Shown: positions 835 to 44,572 of the stretch, one piece after another | Position numbering within the stretch: position 1 is the first letter of the stretch | How the letters are laid out: each line of letters starts with the position of its first letter | Source of the DNA: a virus | Lineage: Duplodnaviria > Heunggongvirae > Uroviricota > Caudoviricetes | Reading direction: 5' to 3' (one strand) | DNA: 45,775 nt | IMG/VR virus record: IMGVR_UViG_2718218398_000003 | Translations under genes and position numbers: made by a program | Notes under the pieces: model-generated | Seen by the model: the letters and a program-made list of their open reading frames with translations, nothing else | Database searches by the model: none | Told to the model about the DNA's origin: nothing

Positions 835-1602
835 ATGCCACAGCCGGCGCTAAAAGCGAACGAAATCAGCAGTGAATTAATCGATATTCTTGCGGCTCGG
901 AATACGATATCCGAAATGCAATATTTTCGTTATATCAGAGATATAGAAAAGTTGCGCGACAGCGCATCTGAGGACTATCTCAAAGCGTTGGCTAATGGTG
1001 CTTTTGGGCGTAAAGATACTGCAGTTGCATTCTTTGAAGAAGCATTGAAGCATAACAACCTGATCATTGCTCAAAATTATGTAGTTTATCTCAACGATTA
1101 CGGCAGCTTCCGTGAAGTTGAACAAGTGGTAAATCGATTAGTTGAACGTTATAACTCCCCTACGATGCTGTCCCATGCATGGGAAGCTAACTTGTTCTTG
1201 GGGCGTATTGACAAAGCGCTCTACTATGCTGAGAGATTGATAAGTATGGTAGATGAAAAGGAGGCTGAATTGGTTAAGCACCTCGCAGCCACAGCACTGG
1301 CCCAATCCACGACCTTCAAAAGTGCAACTGGAATTACTGATGAAGAACTACAGGATATTGCAAACCGCATAGTGGATATCATGGCTGACCATAAAGTTAG
1401 TCCTGTTGCTATGTCTTTCTGCTCTATCCCTGAAGAGCGTACGTCATCATATGTCATGGCAGTTAATACTGAAGATTCTGATGTTCTCTCTGATATGAAC
1501 TTGGATATAGCATTTTCTCTTGCAGAAAATGAAAGTTTGATTGGAAAACCCTTCAGCGTATGGTTTGAAGGGCGTTTGGAGGAACCTGCGCGTGCCAGTT
1601 AA
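835..1602 (+). CDS. hypothetical protein (255 aa), first gene of att-proximal cargo operon
   Basis: ATG preceded by AGGTGA at 5-nt spacing; 255 codons; predicted mostly helical; no recognised motif; AT-rich relative to phage core. Confidence 0.55.
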   Translation: MPQPALKANEISSELIDILAARNTISEMQYFRYIRDIEKLRDSASEDYLKALANGAFGRKDTAVAFFEEALKHNNLIIAQNYVVYLNDYGSFREVEQVVNRLVERYNSPTMLSHAWEANLFLGRIDKALYYAERLISMVDEKEAELVKHLAATALAQSTTFKSATGITDEELQDIANRIVDIMADHKVSPVAMSFCSIPEERTSSYVMAVNTEDSDVLSDMNLDIAFSLAENESLIGKPFSVWFEGRLEEPARAS

Positions 1603-1975
1603 TAGTTCCGATTTTATCGCTTTCGCAAAAGATTGTGAAAAGCGTAACGACGAAATTGGTTACAGAAACGCTGTCGCACGTGCGTATTATGGTGCTTATC
1701 ACCACGTACTTCCGTGTTTGACCATGGGGCCGAAAGAAAGTCACCAAGGCCTCATTGACTATCTTGTTAACGATGCTTGGAAGGGTAACGAACCTTTTGA
1801 AAAAAGAGACTTAATTGGTTTGGGGTATGCTCTTCAATCGCTTAAGGATCAGAGAATAGTTTGTGATTACAGACTTAACGACACTATTACGCCAACCCAA
1901 TCAAGCACCGCGATTAAGACTGCAGAGAAATTAATCCAGCGTTGCGCTAATATGACCAAGTCTAAAGCGTCCTAA
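1592..1975 (+). CDS. HEPN-like small protein (about 127 aa), second gene of cargo operon
   Basis: Track ORF 1541..1975 begins at a TTG; an in-frame GTG at 1592 with GGAGG 9 nt upstream overlaps the stop of the upstream gene (1600-1602) and is the more likely start. Sequence ...YRNAVARAYYGAYHHVLPCLTMGPKESHQGLIDYL... resembles classical HEPN-domain signatures (recalled, not searched). Confidence 0.5.
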   Translation: MPVNSSDFIAFAKDCEKRNDEIGYRNAVARAYYGAYHHVLPCLTMGPKESHQGLIDYLVNDAWKGNEPFEKRDLIGLGYALQSLKDQRIVCDYRLNDTITPTQSSTAIKTAEKLIQRCANMTKSKAS

Positions 1976-2400: not shown

Positions 2401-2458
2401 TTTTGTGCCTCCATAATCATATGATTTAAAATGTTATTTTATAAAAAAGGAGTTGTAT

Positions 2459-3415
2459 ATGACCAATTTGTATAAGTTTATGGGAGCGGATATAATTGAT
2501 AAATTGATGATGGATGAAACACATATAGGAATAAAATTCTCTCATTTACATGAATATAATGATCCCTATGAGTTTTTCCTTACTATTGATTTTAATCGCG
2601 GTTCTGATGAGTTAGCATTTTACAATGAAATGATTGGCATGGTTACAAAACAACCAGCAACTTGTTTTACGAAAAGCCCTGTGATACCACCTATGTGGGC
2701 ACATTATGCAGGTAATTCTTCTGGTTTTGTAATAGAGATTAATGAGGAGAAGTTTAAAAAGTATTTGGATGAAATCGGCTTCCAGGATCATAGTTCAATA
2801 GCAGATGTTGAATATAAAGATTCTCCAGATACAGGTATTGAAGACATTCTGGCGAGAGCATTTCATATCTGTAAACCTCGTTATATCTACTGGCTACAAT
2901 CCTGTATAATGACAGCCGCATATTTGACAAAACAAACTTGCTGGAGTTATGAGCAGGAACGTCGCGTAATAATTAATGAGAAAGCACTTACTAAACTGAA
3001 TGACAATCTTATGCTCCTTCCGGTACCGATTAATTGTATAACTGGAGTTATAGTTGGGCACAAATCAAATGATTTATTAAAGCAGAAAATTCAATCTTTA
3101 GCTAAAAAGGCTAAATGTAGATATTTCGAAATGGTAATAGGAAAAACAACAACTACACCATTTCTTTTATCTCAAAATCTCAAATCACACCAATTTATTA
3201 ATGGCAATATAATACCTGCATCAAGGCAATGTAAAAAATGTTATGAGCCTTTAAACATGGAAAATAAAGTTTGTGGCTGGTGTGGAATTACTAATCATGA
3301 TGTGAAAATGGCAGAGTACCGTAATTCATTTCGAATGATAGCCAACTATGGTGGGCTGGATAAATATATATCATCCATGAATAAGATTACTGAAGAGTAT
3401 AATAAGGGTAAATAA
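2459..3415 (+). CDS. DUF2971-like protein with C-terminal CxxC...CxxC zinc ribbon (318 aa)
   Basis: ATG at 2459 with AAGGAG 6 nt upstream (track start 2453 is a TTG). N-terminal ...LYKFMGADIIDKLMMDETHIGIKFSHLHEYNDPYEFF... and later ...PMWAHYAGNSSGFVIEI... and ...CWSYEQERRVI... fit my recollection of the DUF2971 family; C-terminus has CKKCYEPLNMENKVCGWCG. Very AT-rich. Confidence 0.6.
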   Translation: MTNLYKFMGADIIDKLMMDETHIGIKFSHLHEYNDPYEFFLTIDFNRGSDELAFYNEMIGMVTKQPATCFTKSPVIPPMWAHYAGNSSGFVIEINEEKFKKYLDEIGFQDHSSIADVEYKDSPDTGIEDILARAFHICKPRYIYWLQSCIMTAAYLTKQTCWSYEQERRVIINEKALTKLNDNLMLLPVPINCITGVIVGHKSNDLLKQKIQSLAKKAKCRYFEMVIGKTTTTPFLLSQNLKSHQFINGNIIPASRQCKKCYEPLNMENKVCGWCGITNHDVKMAEYRNSFRMIANYGGLDKYISSMNKITEEYNKGK

Positions 3416-3552: not shown

Positions 3553-4737
3553 CTAACCGGTTTTAATTTCTCCATGAGGGACAACAATCCAATCTATATG
3601 ATTTTTAGTATAAATTTTAGTAGATTTCGCATCGCTATGTGCCATTCGTCCCTGCGGATCAATCCCTTGTTTATCAAATAGGTGAGCTGCCAAAGCTCTT
3701 ATTTCATGGAATGTAGGTCTTTGTTCCATTGCTAGATGATTGCATAGTCCGAGTTTGTCTCGCACGGAAGAGAATGACCGACTCAAATAATCTGGTGCAA
3801 CTTGAGTTGGGTGCGAAACCTCTTTACTGCGTTTAACATGCCGTTCTGGGATTCTATGAACGACAAAGGGACTGGCCACATTGTCACGGCTATTGTCAAT
3901 TATCCGTTTCAATTCTTCACCAATTGGTATTGCAACATGTGATGCCTCCTTTTTTTGTACTTTTTGCCTATGGATGTATAGTGTACCATATATGCCATTT
4001 TGTGGTTGTTCGAACCAAACACATCCACATAAACCGTCTTTAGGTTCGCGAATTGAGTAACGGATTCGCGATACTTCGAGTCGTGCATGTGTAGTCTGCA
4101 ATGCTAGGTCCATTGCTGTTCTTAACCATGGTGCAGCGGCCTGCCTGATAGCTATAAAATGCTCGAGTGACAGGCGCCGTCTTTTCTTCTCATCAGTCCT
4201 ACGCATTTTTTTTCTGATGGCCGGGTTATCCTGCATTAGTGATTCATCGACCGCATAAGAGAACAACTTTTTAAGAAAGCTGACCTTTCTGTTCTGCACA
4301 TTTGCGGATGCGCTGGCATGATATTTGTTGATGTAGGCATTAACGTGTTCAAGTTCGATATCGCATGCCGGAACATTTACGAAAAACGCTTTTACGCGTA
4401 GAGCGTCATTTTTCCAGTCATCTAAGGTACTCTGGGAAGGTCGTTCGTCTTCGATAATTCTGGCCATTATGTGATCGACATGTTCAGCAAATGGTTTTGC
4501 TTCTCCGGTGACCCCGCCAGATTCTCTAATAAGATTATCCACTGATGGGTATAATTCTGATCGCATCCTCAGGTTGTACTCTCTGGCGATTGCAACGGCT
4601 ATTGCCCGATCCTTACCTATATTTTTCTTTTTTCCGGTAATAAGTGTGAATTTATAAACACCTCGATCTTTATCAAAAACCAGATAATCAGGAAGATGTC
4701 TGTATTCTTTTTTACGTGGCCTTGCCGCCATGGTCAT
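3553..4737 (-). CDS. int: tyrosine site-specific integrase
   Basis: 394 aa; C-terminal catalytic region with ...HEIRALAAHLF...RMAHSDAKSTKIY... (conserved H, R and Tyr nucleophile of lambda-family integrases); adjacent to excisionase. Confidence 0.93.
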   Translation of the reverse strand: MTMAARPRKKEYRHLPDYLVFDKDRGVYKFTLITGKKKNIGKDRAIAVAIAREYNLRMRSELYPSVDNLIRESGGVTGEAKPFAEHVDHIMARIIEDERPSQSTLDDWKNDALRVKAFFVNVPACDIELEHVNAYINKYHASASANVQNRKVSFLKKLFSYAVDESLMQDNPAIRKKMRRTDEKKRRRLSLEHFIAIRQAAAPWLRTAMDLALQTTHARLEVSRIRYSIREPKDGLCGCVWFEQPQNGIYGTLYIHRQKVQKKEASHVAIPIGEELKRIIDNSRDNVASPFVVHRIPERHVKRSKEVSHPTQVAPDYLSRSFSSVRDKLGLCNHLAMEQRPTFHEIRALAAHLFDKQGIDPQGRMAHSDAKSTKIYTKNHIDWIVVPHGEIKTG

Positions 4738-14778: not shown

Positions 14779-14795
14779 TTTTGTGGAGAAAGTTG

Positions 14796-15158
14796 ATGCG
14801 TGATATTCAGATGGTTCTGGAGCGTTGGGGAGCATGGGCGGCGAGTGATAGTTCTGGAGTAGATTATTCGCCTATAGCTGCTGGGTTTAAAGGGCTTCTT
14901 CCCTATACAAGTAAAACACGTCAGGCTTGTTCAGATAGTGATGCATTAATTATTGAAGGTTGTCTTGCTCGTCTAAAGCAAAAAAGGCCGGACGAACATT
15001 CGCTTCTTGTTGCCCATTACCTATTCGGTATCTCTAAAAGAAAGCTCGCCAAGGCTCGTAAAAAGGATGAGAAATTAATACGCATTGAGATACAGATGGC
15101 TGAGGGGTTTATTGATGGCTGCCTTTCAATGCTAGATCTAACATTAGATATGGATTAA
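14796..15158 (+). CDS. Q: late-gene antiterminator Q (phage 82/QuuD type)
   Basis: N-terminal MRDIQMVLERWGAWAA... matches the Q82-family signature; ATG with GGAG 7 nt upstream (track start is a TTG 15 nt earlier). Confidence 0.8.
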   Translation: MRDIQMVLERWGAWAASDSSGVDYSPIAAGFKGLLPYTSKTRQACSDSDALIIEGCLARLKQKRPDEHSLLVAHYLFGISKRKLAKARKKDEKLIRIEIQMAEGFIDGCLSMLDLTLDMD

Positions 15159-15165
15159 TTAAGAT

Positions 15166-15194
15166 GAGAAAGATACCTACACAGTATCTTTCTC
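15166..15194. terminator. strong hairpin (11-bp perfect stem) between convergent Q and the accessory cassette
   Basis: GAGAAAGATAC-ctacaca-GTATCTTTCTC, overlapping the stop of the 143-aa minus-strand gene and 8 nt after the Q stop; flanked by A/T-rich sequence. Confidence 0.6.
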
Positions 15195-15608
15195 AATTTG
15201 TTCAAATTTTGGTAATGGATTTGCTGTACTATTTTTTCCTATATTGATCATTATTTCCACAGTTGCTTCTCGAGAGCGTAGCAGCTTTTGCCTAAACTCA
15301 TCAGTGGTATATTTCGATGCTAATTGCTTATCAATGGTCTCGAGATCTCGGAGGCATTGCTTTCTTTTTGCTGCATCTTCTGGTGATTCAAGTCCATGAC
15401 GTGCAATTACCCAGCAAAGTATATATGTCAGGATTGCCGAAATAAGAGGTATTATTAAATATAGTAATTTCGCAAGGTTTGAATTGGCATCAGGTACGCA
15501 AAATGTTACCAGACCTGACAAAATGATCCCAAAACCGCCAGTAGAGAGGGTTGAAGTGACTGGGCTAGTTGGTTTTTTTTCATCAGACATTTGAACTGGT
15601 GCCGTCAT
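15177..15608 (-). CDS. small membrane protein (143 aa, two predicted TM helices), third gene of accessory cassette
   Basis: Hydrophobic segments GGFGIILSGLVTFCV and LLYLIIPLISAILTYILCWVI; overlaps the upstream gene by 26 nt; AT-rich; no recognised motif. Confidence 0.6.
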   Translation of the reverse strand: MTAPVQMSDEKKPTSPVTSTLSTGGFGIILSGLVTFCVPDANSNLAKLLYLIIPLISAILTYILCWVIARHGLESPEDAAKRKQCLRDLETIDKQLASKYTTDEFRQKLLRSREATVEIMINIGKNSTANPLPKFEQIEKDTV

Positions 15609-15846
15609 TCGTTGCTTCTTCTATCAGTTGAACGATAGTTTTGCTTTTGTCTTTAGGCATGACAATAGTGATTGACCGCTTATCGTTGGTGACTTCATCG
15701 ACAAAAACAAACTCAAACTTACGAACAGGGAATAACCTCCGCCATAGTAAAGCGGATGCAGCGTATGAGAAGCGAAACAGGAGAGGTGATATCATGATCA
15801 CCCCTATCCACATCGCGAGTTCTATGATCTGCTGGGTTAACATCAT
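15583..15846 (-). CDS. small membrane protein (87 aa, N-terminal TM helix), second gene of accessory cassette
   Basis: ATG 7 nt after the stop of the upstream gene; hydrophobic N-terminus IIELAMWIGVIMISPLLF; translationally coupled layout. Confidence 0.5.
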   Translation of the reverse strand: MMLTQQIIELAMWIGVIMISPLLFRFSYAASALLWRRLFPVRKFEFVFVDEVTNDKRSITIVMPKDKSKTIVQLIEEATNDGTSSNV

Positions 15847-15852
15847 TCCTGT

Positions 15853-16716
15853 TTAAGCTGGTCGTCTACGTTTAACTTTTTTGATAGCATAACGGTTTGT
15901 TACGCCACGCGCAGTAAATGTTTTTGTTGTTTCTAAATCAACAACATAAAGGTCCTCTTTTGAAAATTGTACTGTTGCAGCCTGAACCTGCGAAAGGAAA
16001 ACATTGTCATCTAGGCTTACTGAATGTTCTTCACCAAGATAATCAATTCGCCATCCCTTATTCCCTTCAAAGTTTACTTGAATGAATCTGACGTTAACCT
16101 CATCAATAGAAACTTCTTTTTCTAGTAAAGTACCACGTGGTAGTGGTTTGATTTCTTCAGTTTCTTCTCCTTCAAGCTTGAGAATCTCTTCTCCATTATC
16201 ATCAGTAATTTTGAAGATCGGGCGCTCTTTACCATCTAGTGGTGCTCTAACTACGTTAACTAAGGCTTGTCGTATTTCGGGATCAGTCACTAACTTTGCA
16301 ACAGCCTCATGACAAATAATTTCTTCTCCATCAAGTTCTAATACTGCTTCTTGTGTGTCGACCTTTCGAGTAACAGAAATAACCTTTCTACTCCCCAATT
16401 GTCGAATCAATGCAAGAGCTGAGCCACCAGCTAATGCACCACCAGCAACAGTGAGTCCAATTGCTTTGGCGACATCGACAGCATGAGGAACTAACTCTTG
16501 CATTGAATAAATAACACCGATTGATCCAGGTGCAGCAGGAGCGGTAACCATCAATTTGACTGTTTCCTGCCCATCATTAAGATTTCGATCCGCCTTTGCA
16601 ATAAGGTCAGCCATAGACCCTATTGATAAACTTAGTGTTTTTGCATCAATCTTATGCTGTGCTAATTCTTCATCTTCGGCATCATAGAAGACTTTGAAAG
16701 TGGTAGAACTATCCAA
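15853..16716 (-). CDS. hypothetical protein (287 aa), first gene of accessory cassette
   Basis: TTG start with GAGG 5 nt upstream; internal Gly/Ala-rich hydrophobic stretch AIGLTVAGGALAGGSALALI; acidic repeats; no recognised catalytic motif. Confidence 0.6.
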   Translation of the reverse strand: MDSSTTFKVFYDAEDEELAQHKIDAKTLSLSIGSMADLIAKADRNLNDGQETVKLMVTAPAAPGSIGVIYSMQELVPHAVDVAKAIGLTVAGGALAGGSALALIRQLGSRKVISVTRKVDTQEAVLELDGEEIICHEAVAKLVTDPEIRQALVNVVRAPLDGKERPIFKITDDNGEEILKLEGEETEEIKPLPRGTLLEKEVSIDEVNVRFIQVNFEGNKGWRIDYLGEEHSVSLDDNVFLSQVQAATVQFSKEDLYVVDLETTKTFTARGVTNRYAIKKVKRRRPA

Positions 16717-16844
16717 TTTTGCCTCAGTTTATTTTTAATTCTATCCTGTAGACTTAAATTAACGTGAAAGAGATGAAAAATCACTAACGCGGTCCGCATT
16801 TTTTCATTTAGCATGTTAAGAGTGGTTACTTCGCCACACAACTT

Positions 16845-16869
16845 AAACCCGCCGCTGAGCGGTTTTTTT
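16845..16869 (+). terminator. short hairpin plus T7 run (possible tR'-like terminator of the late leader)
   Basis: AAACCCGCCGC-tga-GCGG followed by TTTTTTT; located in the intergenic region upstream of the late/lysis genes. Confidence 0.45.
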
Positions 16870-16967
16870 GTACCTGTAAACCTGGTGCAGTACAGTAAAC
16901 ACGCTGGTTGTCGTGAATACTGACTTTTTATCTTGCTGGCATTTTAGACAAGAGTTATTGGTATGTC

Positions 16968-17195
16968 ATGTTAACCAGAAGGGAAAAAGACATGCTAAAA
17001 CAGCAAGATATGACAGAAACCGCCGCCGCAGTCCTTCATTTCTTACCTGCTGACAAGTGGGTAACGCCACGCATGATGACGAGAACTACCGGAGTAAGCG
17101 AAGCCCGGTGCCAGTTAATACTGACTCAGTTAGTTCTGGCGGGTCTGGCGAAGGATAACGGCGGGTACGGGAATAAATTCAGACGCTGCCAGTAA
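16968..17195 (+). CDS. small hypothetical protein (75 aa)
   Basis: ORF upstream of the methyltransferase, same strand; no recognised motif. Confidence 0.35.
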   Translation: MLTRREKDMLKQQDMTETAAAVLHFLPADKWVTPRMMTRTTGVSEARCQLILTQLVLAGLAKDNGGYGNKFRRCQ

Positions 17196-17345
17196 TGGCG
17201 GTTTCCTGCTGTGAAAATGGGCGGCTGGTGGGTGTTGGTAGCACCTGCCAGCCATTCGCTCATGCCTACTGGTCACAAGCGAACCACGGCCCACTGCTTT
17301 AGCGCAAAAGCAGAGTGAGCCTACCAGAGTTACGCTTACTGATCC

Positions 17346-18398
17346 ATGAAAAATACTGTAAAAATAAACAGTGTTGATTTAATCAACGCTGATTGCCTGC
17401 ATTTTATTCAGTCCCTGCCTGATGATTCCATTGACCTGATTGTTACCGATCCGCCTTACTTCAAGGTGAAACCCAACGGCTGGGACAATCAGTGGAAAGG
17501 GGACGAAGATTACCTTAAGTGGCTGGACCACTGTCTGGCCCAGTTCTGGCGGGTGTTGAAACCTGCCGGAAGCCTTTACCTGTTCTGTGGGCATCGCCTG
17601 GCATCTGATATTGAGATCATGATGCGTGAACGTTTCAACGTGCTTAACCATATCATCTGGGCGAAGCCGTCCGGACGTTGGAATGGGTGTAATAAAGAAA
17701 GTCTGCGCGCATATTTTCCTGCCACAGAGCGCGTTCTGTTTGCTGAACATTACCAGGGGCCATATCGCGGCAAAAGTGACGGCTATGCGGCAAAAGAAAG
17801 GGAACTCAAACAGCACATAATGGCACCGCTGATATCGTATTTCAGGGATGCTCGTGCCGAACTGGGTATAACGGCAAAACAAATTGCCGAAGCCACAGGT
17901 AAGAAAAATATGGTTTCCCACTGGTTTGGTGCCAGTCAGTGGCAGTTGCCGAATGAGGCTGACTATCGGAAGTTACAGGCACTGTTTTCCCGTATAGCGG
18001 CAGAGAAGTTTCAGGAACAACAACTGGAACAACCACACCACCAACTGGTGGCATCTTATGATTCACTGAATCGTAAATATTCTGAATTGCTGGATGAGTT
18101 TAAATCTCTCCGGCGCTATTTCTCCGTATCAGTCTCCGTGCCTTATACCGATGTCTGGATGCATAAACCCGTTCAGTTCTACCCGGGTAAACATCCGTGT
18201 GAGAAACCGGCGGATATGCTCAGGCAAATAATCAATGCCAGTAGTCGACCTGGTGATCTGGTTGCTGATTTTTTTATGGGATCCGGTTCCACAATAAAAG
18301 CAGCAATGGCGTTGGGGCGTCGGGCCTTAGGTGTTGAGCTTGAGTCAGAGCGGTTTAACCAGACAGTGAAAGAGATAAACGAGCTGGTGGGGAAATAA
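17346..18398 (+). CDS. DNA methyltransferase (amino-methyltransferase, DPPY motif)
   Basis: 350 aa; motif IV ...LIVTDPPYF... near the N-terminus and AdoMet-binding motif I ...[11 protein letters not shown]... near the C-terminus (beta-class order); no cognate endonuclease nearby. Confidence 0.88.
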
Positions 18399-42600: not shown

Positions 42601-42886
42601 CCATTCGATGACATTTGTTTCAGGTGGTTCCAGTGGTGCTCCGGGAAGTGGATCACCTGATTATTCTAAATACAGTGTTAACACTTCTTCTGCAGGCGCT
42701 CATACGCACTCTGTATCGGGTACTGCTGCAAGCGCAGGTGCACACGCACATACTGTAGGTATTGGTGCGCATACGCACTCGGTTGCGATTGGTTCACATG
42801 GACACACCATCACCGTTAACGCTGCTGGTAACGCGGAAAACACCGTCAAAAACATCGCATTTAACTATATTGTGAGGCTTGCATAA
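39659..42886 (+). CDS. stf: side tail fibre protein (Stf) with long Ala/Ser/Thr-rich repeat region and His-rich C-terminal repeats
   Basis: 1075 aa; N-terminus [30 protein letters not shown]... like lambdoid Stf; central low-complexity repeats (...[11 protein letters not shown]...); C-terminal repeated ...[20 protein letters not shown]... motifs; followed by tfa. Confidence 0.9.
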
Positions 42887-43470
42887 TGGCATTCAGAATG
42901 AGTGAACAAGCACGGACCATAAAAATTTATAATCTGCTGTCCGGAACTAATGAATTTATTGGTGAAGGTGATGCATATATTCCGCCTCATACAGGTCTGC
43001 CAGCAAACAGTACCGACATTGCACCGCCAGATATTCCAGCTGGCTTCGTGGCTGTTTTCAACAGTGATGAGTTATCGTGGCATCTCGTTGAAGATCATCG
43101 GGGTAAAACGGTTTATGACGTGGCTTCCGGCGACGCGTTATTTATTTCTGAACTCGGTCCGTTACCGGAAAATGTCACCTGGTTATCCCCGGAAGGGGAG
43201 TTTCAGAAGTGGAACGGCACAGCCTGGGTGAAAGATGCAGAAGCAGAAAAACTGTTCCGGATCCGGGAGGCGGAAGAAACAAAAAACAGCCTGATGCAGG
43301 CAGCGAATGAGCATATTGCGCCACTTCAGGATGCTGTAGATCTGGAAATCGCAACGGAGGAAGAAAACTCGTTGCTGGAAGCCTGGAAAAAGTATCGGGT
43401 GTTGCTGAACCGTGTTGATACATCAGTAGCACCGGATATTGAGTGGCCTGCTGTCCCTGTTATGGAGTAA
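42886..43470 (+). CDS. tfa: tail fibre assembly protein (Tfa)
   Basis: 194 aa; [54 protein letters not shown]... classic Tfa signature; start overlaps the stf stop. Confidence 0.9.
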
Positions 43471-43573: not shown

Positions 43574-44361
43574 TTAAGCATCACGTATTGCCAACCTGAT
43601 TTTTGACTGATACCAATTGGGGCCTTCTGCAATTATTTCTTCCTCAACATGCATGATGGGATGCATTTCAATTTCAGAGTTTTTGACTTTTAGATCTAGT
43701 CCATATTTTTTTGAAATTTGTAAAACTTCATTTTTGAAATCCTTATCTGCGAAAGGTGAAATCCTTATTTCTTCCAACAGATTATTAAGAGATACAGGGA
43801 CTAGTTTTCCCTTTACAGGTGGAGTGTTAAAGGTATTCTCTTGAAAAATAGCTCTAAACTCTTTTTCGTGTTCGAAAGATGGTCTCTTGTTAAAGAATAC
43901 ATCTGATTCTGGATTGTATTGTTTTATCCAGAAATTTTTGACGTATTTTACGTGTTTTAATTGTAGTTTGTTTAGATTATTATTTTCAAGTTGGCTTTGG
44001 AGGTTTTTTTCTTTGATTTTATGACAACGCCTTTAGCGGGGTTTTTACAATACAGCTTCCACATAGCTTCAGATTCATGTTCGTTACAATGCCAGCAACT
44101 TATATATGTCCTCTCGCTTATTTCCTTAAGTGTCTTTAAATTGAATGCCATGAAAGGCTCTAAGTCCATGCCGGCACCATGAGTAGCGCATAGTTTTTCC
44201 TGTGTCTCAATGAATTTTTTATAGCCAGTATGTCCCCAAGCAAATTCACCTTCGAACGGATCTTCAAAATTTTTTGCTGAGCAAAAAAATAAAGCATTTT
44301 GTTCGAGTAACATAGAGAATTTCTCTATGTCAAGATATCGCCATATATACTCAGTGTGCAT
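43574..44361 (-). pseudogene. DUF2971-like gene disrupted by a frameshift in an A7 tract (paralogous in family to 2459-3415)
   Basis: ATG at 44361 with AGGAG 5 nt upstream; N-terminus MHTEYIWRYLDIEKFSMLLEQNALFFCSAKNFEDPFEGEF... and ...CWHCNEHESEAMWKLYCKNPAKGVVIK fit DUF2971. This frame stops at 43972, but a second frame is open without stops from 44032 to 43574 and continues with ...HEKEFRAIF... The frames switch at AAGAAAAAAACC (about 44003-44011). Confidence 0.55.
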
Positions 44362-44572
44362 GATAGCTCCTTGCAATATAACTATTTCTATCTGTTCATT
44401 TGTACTTAAAAAGGATTGAGTAGCCCGAACAGTTCTATCCGTAAATATACCAGATAGAAGAGTTGTACAATAACAAATCCTCCGTATAAGAACCAGCCAT
44501 AATAGTCTGGTTCTTAAGGTTTTTTTGTTCGAGGGGTTTTAACCTACGATTCGTCCCCATATCGGCGATAAA

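Follow-up and report, generated by a model that had tools for sequence, protein, structure and literature searches.

Among described systems, one that the locus considered here resembles in outline is RexA/RexB of phage lambda, in which a soluble protein of ~280 amino acids (aa) and a membrane protein of ~140 aa are encoded by the prophage and transcribed in the lysogen. RexB has four transmembrane (TM) segments, and both the trigger and the mechanism of RexAB are still debated. Phage entry is known to be blocked by other small membrane proteins, such as T4 Imm, P22 SieA and HK97 gp15. A further point of comparison is the PADLOC family PDC-S42, a single-gene entry in that catalogue (Payne et al., bioRxiv 10.1101/2024.01.29.577857). 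We analyzed a 45,775-nucleotide stretch of viral DNA (Caudoviricetes; IMG/VR record IMGVR_UViG_2718218398_000003), referred to below as the window, which is a complete lambdoid E. coli prophage. Between the antiterminator gene Q and the late operon it carries a cassette of three closely packed minus-strand genes, designated A, B and C. The product of A belongs to the PDC-S42 family, and B and C encode two small putative membrane proteins. The role that appears most plausible from the context of these genes is exclusion or abortive infection.

The three genes and their conservation

Gene A (15853..16716, minus strand) encodes a soluble protein of 287 aa with a pI of 5.0. Its start is a TTG at 16716, with a GAGG Shine-Dalgarno (SD) sequence 5 nucleotides (nt) upstream. 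Gene B (15583..15846, minus) encodes 87 aa with one predicted TM segment, and gene C (15177..15590, minus) encodes 137 aa with two predicted TM segments, or 143 aa if an ATG at 15608 is used. Because 137 aa is the usual length of the C homologs and an upstream ATG is absent from the Citrobacter copy, the start of C is most likely the ATG at 15590. The original prediction had placed three minus-strand open reading frames (ORFs) here, all of which are present, and its picture of a self-contained cargo operon on the opposite strand, translationally coupled and placed in a variable slot of the prophage, is supported, with some adjustment of the spacing. The gap between A and B is 6 nt (TAA ACAGGA ATG) rather than 7, and the proposed overlap of 26 nt between B and C holds for the start at 15608, whereas the likely start at 15590 gives an 8-nt overlap with the B stop, ATGTCTGA. 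In other taxa the junctions between the three genes are likewise 0-20 nt or overlaps. When the genes were compared with their Citrobacter counterparts, the ratio of nonsynonymous to synonymous substitution (dN/dS) was 0.033 for A, 0.065 for B and 0.083 for C (dS 0.46-0.66); the values for B span 0.065-0.13, and those for all three genes lie within 0.03-0.13. These low ratios indicate that A, B and C are all genuine protein-coding genes under strong purifying selection. B is annotated by PGAP in some genomes only.

The three genes travel together. A survey of co-occurrence found A, B and C at every examined A homolog of ~30-97% identity. In E. coli there are three alleles, that of the window, that of loci L002 and L003 (~70% identity in A) and that of L032. 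The trio also occurs in Klebsiella pneumoniae (L007-L011), Enterobacter (L028), Citrobacter (L029, L030), Tatumella (L034), Proteus (L013), Pseudomonas (L004-L006, L035, L037) and Halomonas (L036). A trio of enterobacterial type with 69% identity to A was found on a contig labelled Vagococcus sp. WN89Y (L033); in this Firmicute-assigned contig, assembly contamination is a more likely explanation than transfer. A search for related loci with the single protein gave no match, and a narrower alignment retrieved five loci. In the prophages of three of the Klebsiella loci (L008, L009 and L011) an Acb2/Tad1-hairpin protein (PF24729) is encoded near the lysis genes, at ~1.7-2.4 kb in the locus; proteins of this family are known to act as sponges for nucleotides used in immune signalling.

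Relatives of A at 22-29% identity, by comparison, are solo genes. Two of these are on phage-like or mobile elements near toxin-antitoxin genes (PemK, HicB or SocA-Panacea), and two distant solo relatives immediately follow a CI/S24 repressor gene in the immunity regions of prophages. The family is rare in E. coli: among 5426 complete genomes, A-like DNA was detected in 63 and the exact cassette in 12. A tblastn search of 50,697 deposited phage genomes with A gave no match.

Hydropathy agrees with the one TM segment originally proposed for B and the two proposed for C. In B, an N-terminal TM helix (~aa 6-34) precedes a conserved LLWRRLFP motif, and the small domain at the C terminus is, from the positive-inside rule, probably cytoplasmic. 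Orthologs of B have 79-92 aa and follow A in every trio locus. C is predicted to form a two-TM hairpin (~aa 20-39 and 45-70 in the 143-aa numbering), and the motif W..RHGLESPEDAAKR directly after the second TM segment is invariant in 17 homologs. B and C diverge faster than A, with identities between E. coli alleles of 47% for B and 42% for C, compared to 70% for A.

Family and modeled fold of protein A

The 287-aa protein, in which no assignable motif had at first been seen, gives full-length matches to three family profiles. It matches PDLC05015, one of the two PADLOC models for PDC-S42 (the other is PDLC05016), with an E value of 9.8e-33 and 111.9 bits, aa 3-287 aligning to positions 2-292 of the 302-position profile. 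For NCBIfam NF053583 the cut-off is 60 bits and A scores 207.5, with aa 7-286 aligned over the whole profile (positions 1-292 of 292). This family bears the name "LAPAL motif-containing putative phage structural protein", which RefSeq applies to the identical protein WP_032198010.1 in some genomes. The third match is to PHROG phrog_3243 (E 2.7e-61), for which function is not assigned. The match to PDC-S42 means that the family of A is already a listed defense candidate, though as a single gene, and the original designation as undescribed and without an assignable motif is wrong for this protein. Text searches of the literature for PDC-S42, the LAPAL motif and DUF7946 gave no matches, the coverage of E. 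coli prophage-defense work being incomplete, and PDC-S42 had no text match in the supplements of the PDC paper.

An exhaustive profile search with the A family retrieved 2032 representatives of 50%-identity clusters at E <= 1e-3, nearly all of 280-320 aa and with a single architecture. At the position of the LAPAL motif, distant members have DLAPALLA and the protein of the window has TLSLSIGS. A itself has no match in Pfam, and this includes DUF7946 (PF25678), a family with no assigned function. Sub-threshold matches to DUF7946 were found for 9 of 29 distant members of the A family, over the N-terminal ~90-180 residues; the best among the matches listed reached 24.7 bits, below the cut-off of 27.

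A was modeled confidently by AlphaFold2 (pLDDT 84.3, pTM 0.76). The model predicts an N-terminal beta-alpha-beta-beta domain (aa 1-75), a Gly/Ala-rich hydrophobic loop of borderline hydropathy that is poorly ordered in the model (aa 79-105), a middle alpha/beta domain (aa 112-187) and a C-terminal OB-like barrel (aa 198-285). In the modeled barrel, strands at 198-213, 222-226, 229-235, 256-267 and 272-285 and a helix at 238-245 have block-mean pLDDT values of 66-94. This arrangement, five strands with a helix interposed between the third and the fourth, conforms to the OB topology, for which the single-strand-binding proteins SSB, PriB, RPA and Rim1 are the points of comparison. A Foldseek search of the Protein Data Bank (PDB) with the model found nothing at E <= 1e-3, the Rim1 SSB alone reaching a high local probability. 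Matches in BFVD were to uncharacterized phage proteins only, and a sequence search of the PDB with the A-family profile gave chance matches only, with E above 0.3.

Five residues, G64, R149, W222, D237 and F240, are invariant across the family. That they are so few and so scattered argues against A being an enzyme. Among Enterobacterales, F211, N215, F216, G221, W222 and R223 cluster on the first strands of the modeled barrel, an arrangement that would be compatible with a ligand-binding face.

The slot between Q and the late leader

Gene C converges on Q (14781-15158), which encodes an antiterminator of the Q21 family (PF06530, E 4e-53), and the two are separated by only 18 nt. The GC content over 15000-16950 is 0.37-0.44, compared to 0.51-0.58 upstream and ~0.50 downstream, in agreement with the earlier description of the block as AT-rich. 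An inverted repeat with an 11-13 bp stem (15165..15195) lies between Q and C and overlaps the C stop codon. Folded as the plus strand it has an energy of -15.6 kcal/mol (z -4.9 against shuffled sequences), and as the minus strand one of -17.5 kcal/mol (z -4.7); the 11-bp-stem hairpin first noticed at the left edge of the block is thus confirmed by folding (z about -4.8). In the Enterobacter, Citrobacter and Klebsiella loci a hairpin is kept at the same place, with different stem sequences. It probably halts transcription in both directions, ending the early (Q) transcript as well as that of the cassette, a weak point of this assignment being that no clear U-run follows the hairpin on either strand in the window.

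To the right of gene A is a putative divergent control region of 134 bp (16717..16850), as read from the sequence. A promoter for the cassette would be located within it on the minus strand, the best candidate having a -10 element TAGAAT at 16743-16738 (minus) and a weak -35 element. This candidate would give a leader of ~15 nt containing the SD. On the plus strand, a Q-dependent late promoter is predicted just upstream of an intrinsic-terminator-like site (16851..16870, plus), which consists of GCCGC-TGA-GCGGT followed by T7. The site has a 5-bp GC stem and resembles lambda tR', and its T-run is found on the plus strand only. The late promoter is placed to the right of the cargo because Q and C are so closely spaced and because homology with other prophages starts at 16767-16846, the breakpoints varying with the left-hand contents. 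With the promoter there, the cassette would be outside the late transcript and would diverge from the late operon across 16717-16850. A short inverted repeat at 16786-16800 (minus) upstream of A (AACGCGGTCCGCATT on the plus strand) is kept in the window, L002, L003 and L019, but not in L020. It is thus kept with different cargo, and it folds no better than shuffled sequences (z 0.09). Instead of forming an RNA structure, it could serve as a binding site for a protein.

The site at 16851-16870 and the DNA rightward of it are common to 1419 of the 5426 complete E. coli genomes, with any cargo or Q type, and the site therefore belongs to the late-operon leader and not to the cassette. In the original prediction a terminator at 16845-16869 bracketed the block on this side; such a site is present, but as part of the leader. 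The location had also been identified with the slot that carries stx in other lambdoid phages. It is indeed a variable, Q-proximal cargo slot, but the cassette precedes the late leader and is read from the other strand. In Stx phages, stx is downstream of the leader, within the Q-dependent transcript, so that the slot of the cassette adjoins the stx position but differs from it. The third E. coli trio allele, that of L032, precedes a tRNA cluster of the kind typical of Stx-phage late regions.

Sister prophages have other contents in the same slot. There is an unrelated minus-strand gene for 148 aa in L020 (3462-3908), another for 339 aa in L019 (2886-3905), and no cargo in L021, which has a different Q type. 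The interval between Q and the leader seems to serve as a general hotspot for cargo carried on the opposite strand. In Enterobacterales prophages the trio is almost always convergent on a Q of the Q21 family. The identical cassette occurs in lambdoid backbones whose early regions differ, including a circular record of 43 kb, and this shows modular exchange. This record, NZ_CP174001.1 (L031; 43,337 bp), holds one of the 12 exact copies and was deposited as plasmid pOHT76-1_1. It has the same cassette and the same Q, and its early genes (ybcN, ninE, ybcO, rusA, ylcG) differ from those of the window. The record appears to be the circular genome of a lambdoid phage, which may have been excised or induced and then assembled as a replicon.

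In the remainder of the window, the integrase gene is at 3553-4737 (minus) and a CI-type repressor region is near 8.2-8.9 kb, with replication and Nin-type genes beyond it. Rightward of the cassette are genes for a small phrog_331 protein and an N6/N4 DNA methyltransferase, the holin gene essD, lysozyme and Rz-like lysis genes, and then terminase, head and tail genes. Identical copies are annotated in E. coli genomes of RefSeq. The phrog_331 and methyltransferase genes, within 16968-18398 (plus), are common to many E. coli prophages. The methyltransferase has 350 aa (PADLOC MTase_II, E 3e-152), and RefSeq gives the phrog_331 protein a later start and 67 aa. A late-expressed orphan methylase of this kind could have an anti-restriction function. 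Adjoining the integrase gene is a gene for a DUF2971 protein of 320 aa (2453-3415, plus) that matches the PADLOC candidate PDC-S31 (E 4e-22), and a 134-aa ORF beyond the tail-fiber genes (43972-44376, minus) has a fragmentary match to the same candidate (E 4e-12). From these matches the prophage seems to hold candidate defense cargo near both of its ends as well. Beyond the integrase, at 835-1975 (plus), are adjacent or overlapping ORFs of 255 aa (weak tetratricopeptide repeat matches) and 144 aa (no match), both labelled hypothetical in RefSeq, which may be a further accessory pair. At 43229-43427 (plus), within a 194-aa ORF (42886-43470) downstream of the tail-fiber gene, the Rfam family IS009 (RF02111) is matched over its full length with 209 bits, the gathering score being 117. 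Rfam and tRNA scans gave no match within or adjoining the cassette.

Possible function and comparison with known systems

The strand of the cassette and its place outside the Q transcript, its AT-richness, the exchangeable slot, the repressor-linked relatives and the occurrence of the family within defense systems all fit a module that acts against phages in the lysogen. The combination of a soluble OB-like protein of non-catalytic appearance with two fast-evolving membrane proteins bearing cytoplasmic tails suggests a sensor coupled to a membrane effector. The reading we prefer, to which we would give slightly less than an even chance, is that the cassette is a lysogen-expressed exclusion or abortive-infection module composed of a soluble sensor and two membrane partners. 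It would be a cargo operon with its own promoter, independent of Q and expressed in the lysogen, most likely protecting against other phages. A would be a soluble, non-enzymatic sensor or adaptor, and its OB-like barrel, with the family-invariant W222 and the Enterobacterales-invariant F211, N215, F216 and R223, would bind a phage-derived cue. The likeliest cue would be single-stranded nucleic acid, or an intermediate of replication or injection. A would then signal to the cytoplasmic parts of B, a single-pass protein, and of C, a two-pass hairpin with a helical tail. B and C might in turn compromise the membrane and cause abortive infection by the logic of RexA/RexB, or they might block genome entry.

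Several observations weigh against this interpretation. A promoter consensus scan of 16717-16850 found no strong promoter, and none for the cassette. B and C, in which the original prediction had likewise seen no assignable motif, have no family match beyond noise in Pfam, NCBIfam, PADLOC or PHROGs, and no match to a known effector. The model of C, with two TM segments and two cytoplasmic helices, is of low confidence (pLDDT 63, pTM 0.32). Three of the solo relatives of A are in ordinary chromosomal surroundings, with no defense or mobile-element genes nearby. It should also be noted that the PDC set comprises 145 candidates, picked for the occurrence of members inside BREX, DISARM or type I restriction-modification systems, and that its authors describe these as untested (Payne et al., bioRxiv 10.1101/2024.01.29.577857).

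A more far-reaching proposal, which we regard as rather unlikely, is that the trio represents an unrecognized class of prophage abortive-infection system. An OB-fold sensor with no relative among solved structures would recognize single-stranded nucleic acid of the phage, or an intermediate of its replication or injection, and would gate a two-protein inner-membrane effector, the whole being an independently arisen analog of RexAB.

The alternative that survives best, although itself unlikely, is superinfection exclusion at the entry step. Here B and C, in the inner membrane and with A docked on them, would block or trap incoming DNA, and the cell would not be killed. Two small proteins predicted to be in the inner membrane with cytoplasmic tails are what such a mechanism would require, the OB-like domain of A could bind DNA ends or single strands, and a position among prophage cargo fits as well. 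The faster divergence of B and C between E. coli alleles is the pattern expected of parts that touch changing phage or host components. However, the known blockers are single small proteins and need no soluble partner of 287 aa, and the solo relatives of A without a membrane partner imply that the core activity of the family is independent of the membrane pair.

We consider it more doubtful that the cassette serves lysogenic conversion or phage physiology unrelated to other phages, through effects on the host envelope, the stress response, or the prophage's own induction or lysis timing. The slot adjoins the lysis genes, membrane proteins are encoded, and the chromosomal surroundings of some solo relatives would be natural for such a role. 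Against this, the products have neither a signal peptide nor a lipobox and do not resemble holins, antiholins or spanins; the cassette precedes the late leader and is read from the other strand; and it was embedding in defense systems that brought the family to notice. Lower again in probability is a toxin-antitoxin-like or addiction module, in which B, C or both would be membrane toxins restrained by A. The module would stabilize the prophage or a recombination module, any anti-phage effect being secondary or absent. The small, hydrophobic and tightly coupled products of B and C, encoded downstream of a larger soluble partner in an AT-rich and mobile block, are in keeping with such a module, as are the family relatives that adjoin PemK, HicB or SocA-Panacea genes on other mobile elements. 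A, however, is far larger and more conserved than typical antitoxins, no toxin-antitoxin family in Pfam, NCBIfam or PADLOC was matched, and solo A genes are common. That A is a virion structural protein, as the NF053583 name implies, is very improbable despite a score far above the cut-off and the frequency of the family in prophages: the gene is read from the strand opposite to all the structural genes and is not part of the Q-dependent transcript, two membrane-protein genes come after it, its relatives are found in immunity regions or at non-phage chromosomal sites, it had no match among the deposited phage genomes, and the slot is empty or otherwise filled in sister prophages with the same virion genes.

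If the cassette protects against phage, this would be the first function for a family that has so far been a computational defense candidate only, and the family would have two architectures, one solo and one with a two-protein membrane module. The gap between Q and the late promoter of lambdoid prophages would then be a cargo slot worth mining, and RexAB would have a counterpart unrelated in sequence. Should the more specific abortive-infection class prove correct, it would supply a function for the PDC-S42/LAPAL family, with its ~2000 representatives of 50%-identity clusters. If there is no anti-phage phenotype, the cassette would be an ordinary prophage accessory operon. As a 1.6-kb operon in E. 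coli, it is cheap to test.

Judged against the literature and libraries consulted, four points appear to be new: the obligate trio form, in which A is joined by a pair of membrane proteins; the breadth of conservation of the trio among Gammaproteobacteria; its constant location between Q and the leader; and the OB-like domain of A. A resembles PDC-S42 in its end-to-end match and in the family size of ~290-310 aa. However, PDC-S42 is a single gene, whereas in the window A heads a three-gene operon with two membrane proteins in a lambdoid slot. The neighbors of A in the window, namely Q, the phrog_331 protein, the DNA methyltransferase and the lysis genes, include no known defense system of the kind by which PDC members were selected. 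From NF053583 the protein differs in having no literal LAPAL motif, and the "structural" label of that family gains no support from the position, strand and distribution of the gene. The Tai tail-assembly-inhibition systems (PMC11364771), also considered, have another location and no membrane components and were set aside as irrelevant.

The comparison with lambda RexAB is of another kind. Besides the general plan of a soluble and a membrane protein, a repressor-adjacent place like that of rexAB is shared by two distant solo relatives of A. RexA was rejected as a homolog of A (hhalign profile probability 0.2%, E 0.37), and RexB as a homolog of C, BLASTP finding only chance segments of 19-20 residues. 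C has two hydrophobic segments rather than the four TM segments of RexB, and the cassette has two membrane proteins and is placed after Q rather than in the immunity region. Unlike rexAB, which is co-transcribed with the repressor gene, it lies ~6 kb from the repressor region. The cassette is analogous to RexAB in outline and not homologous to it.

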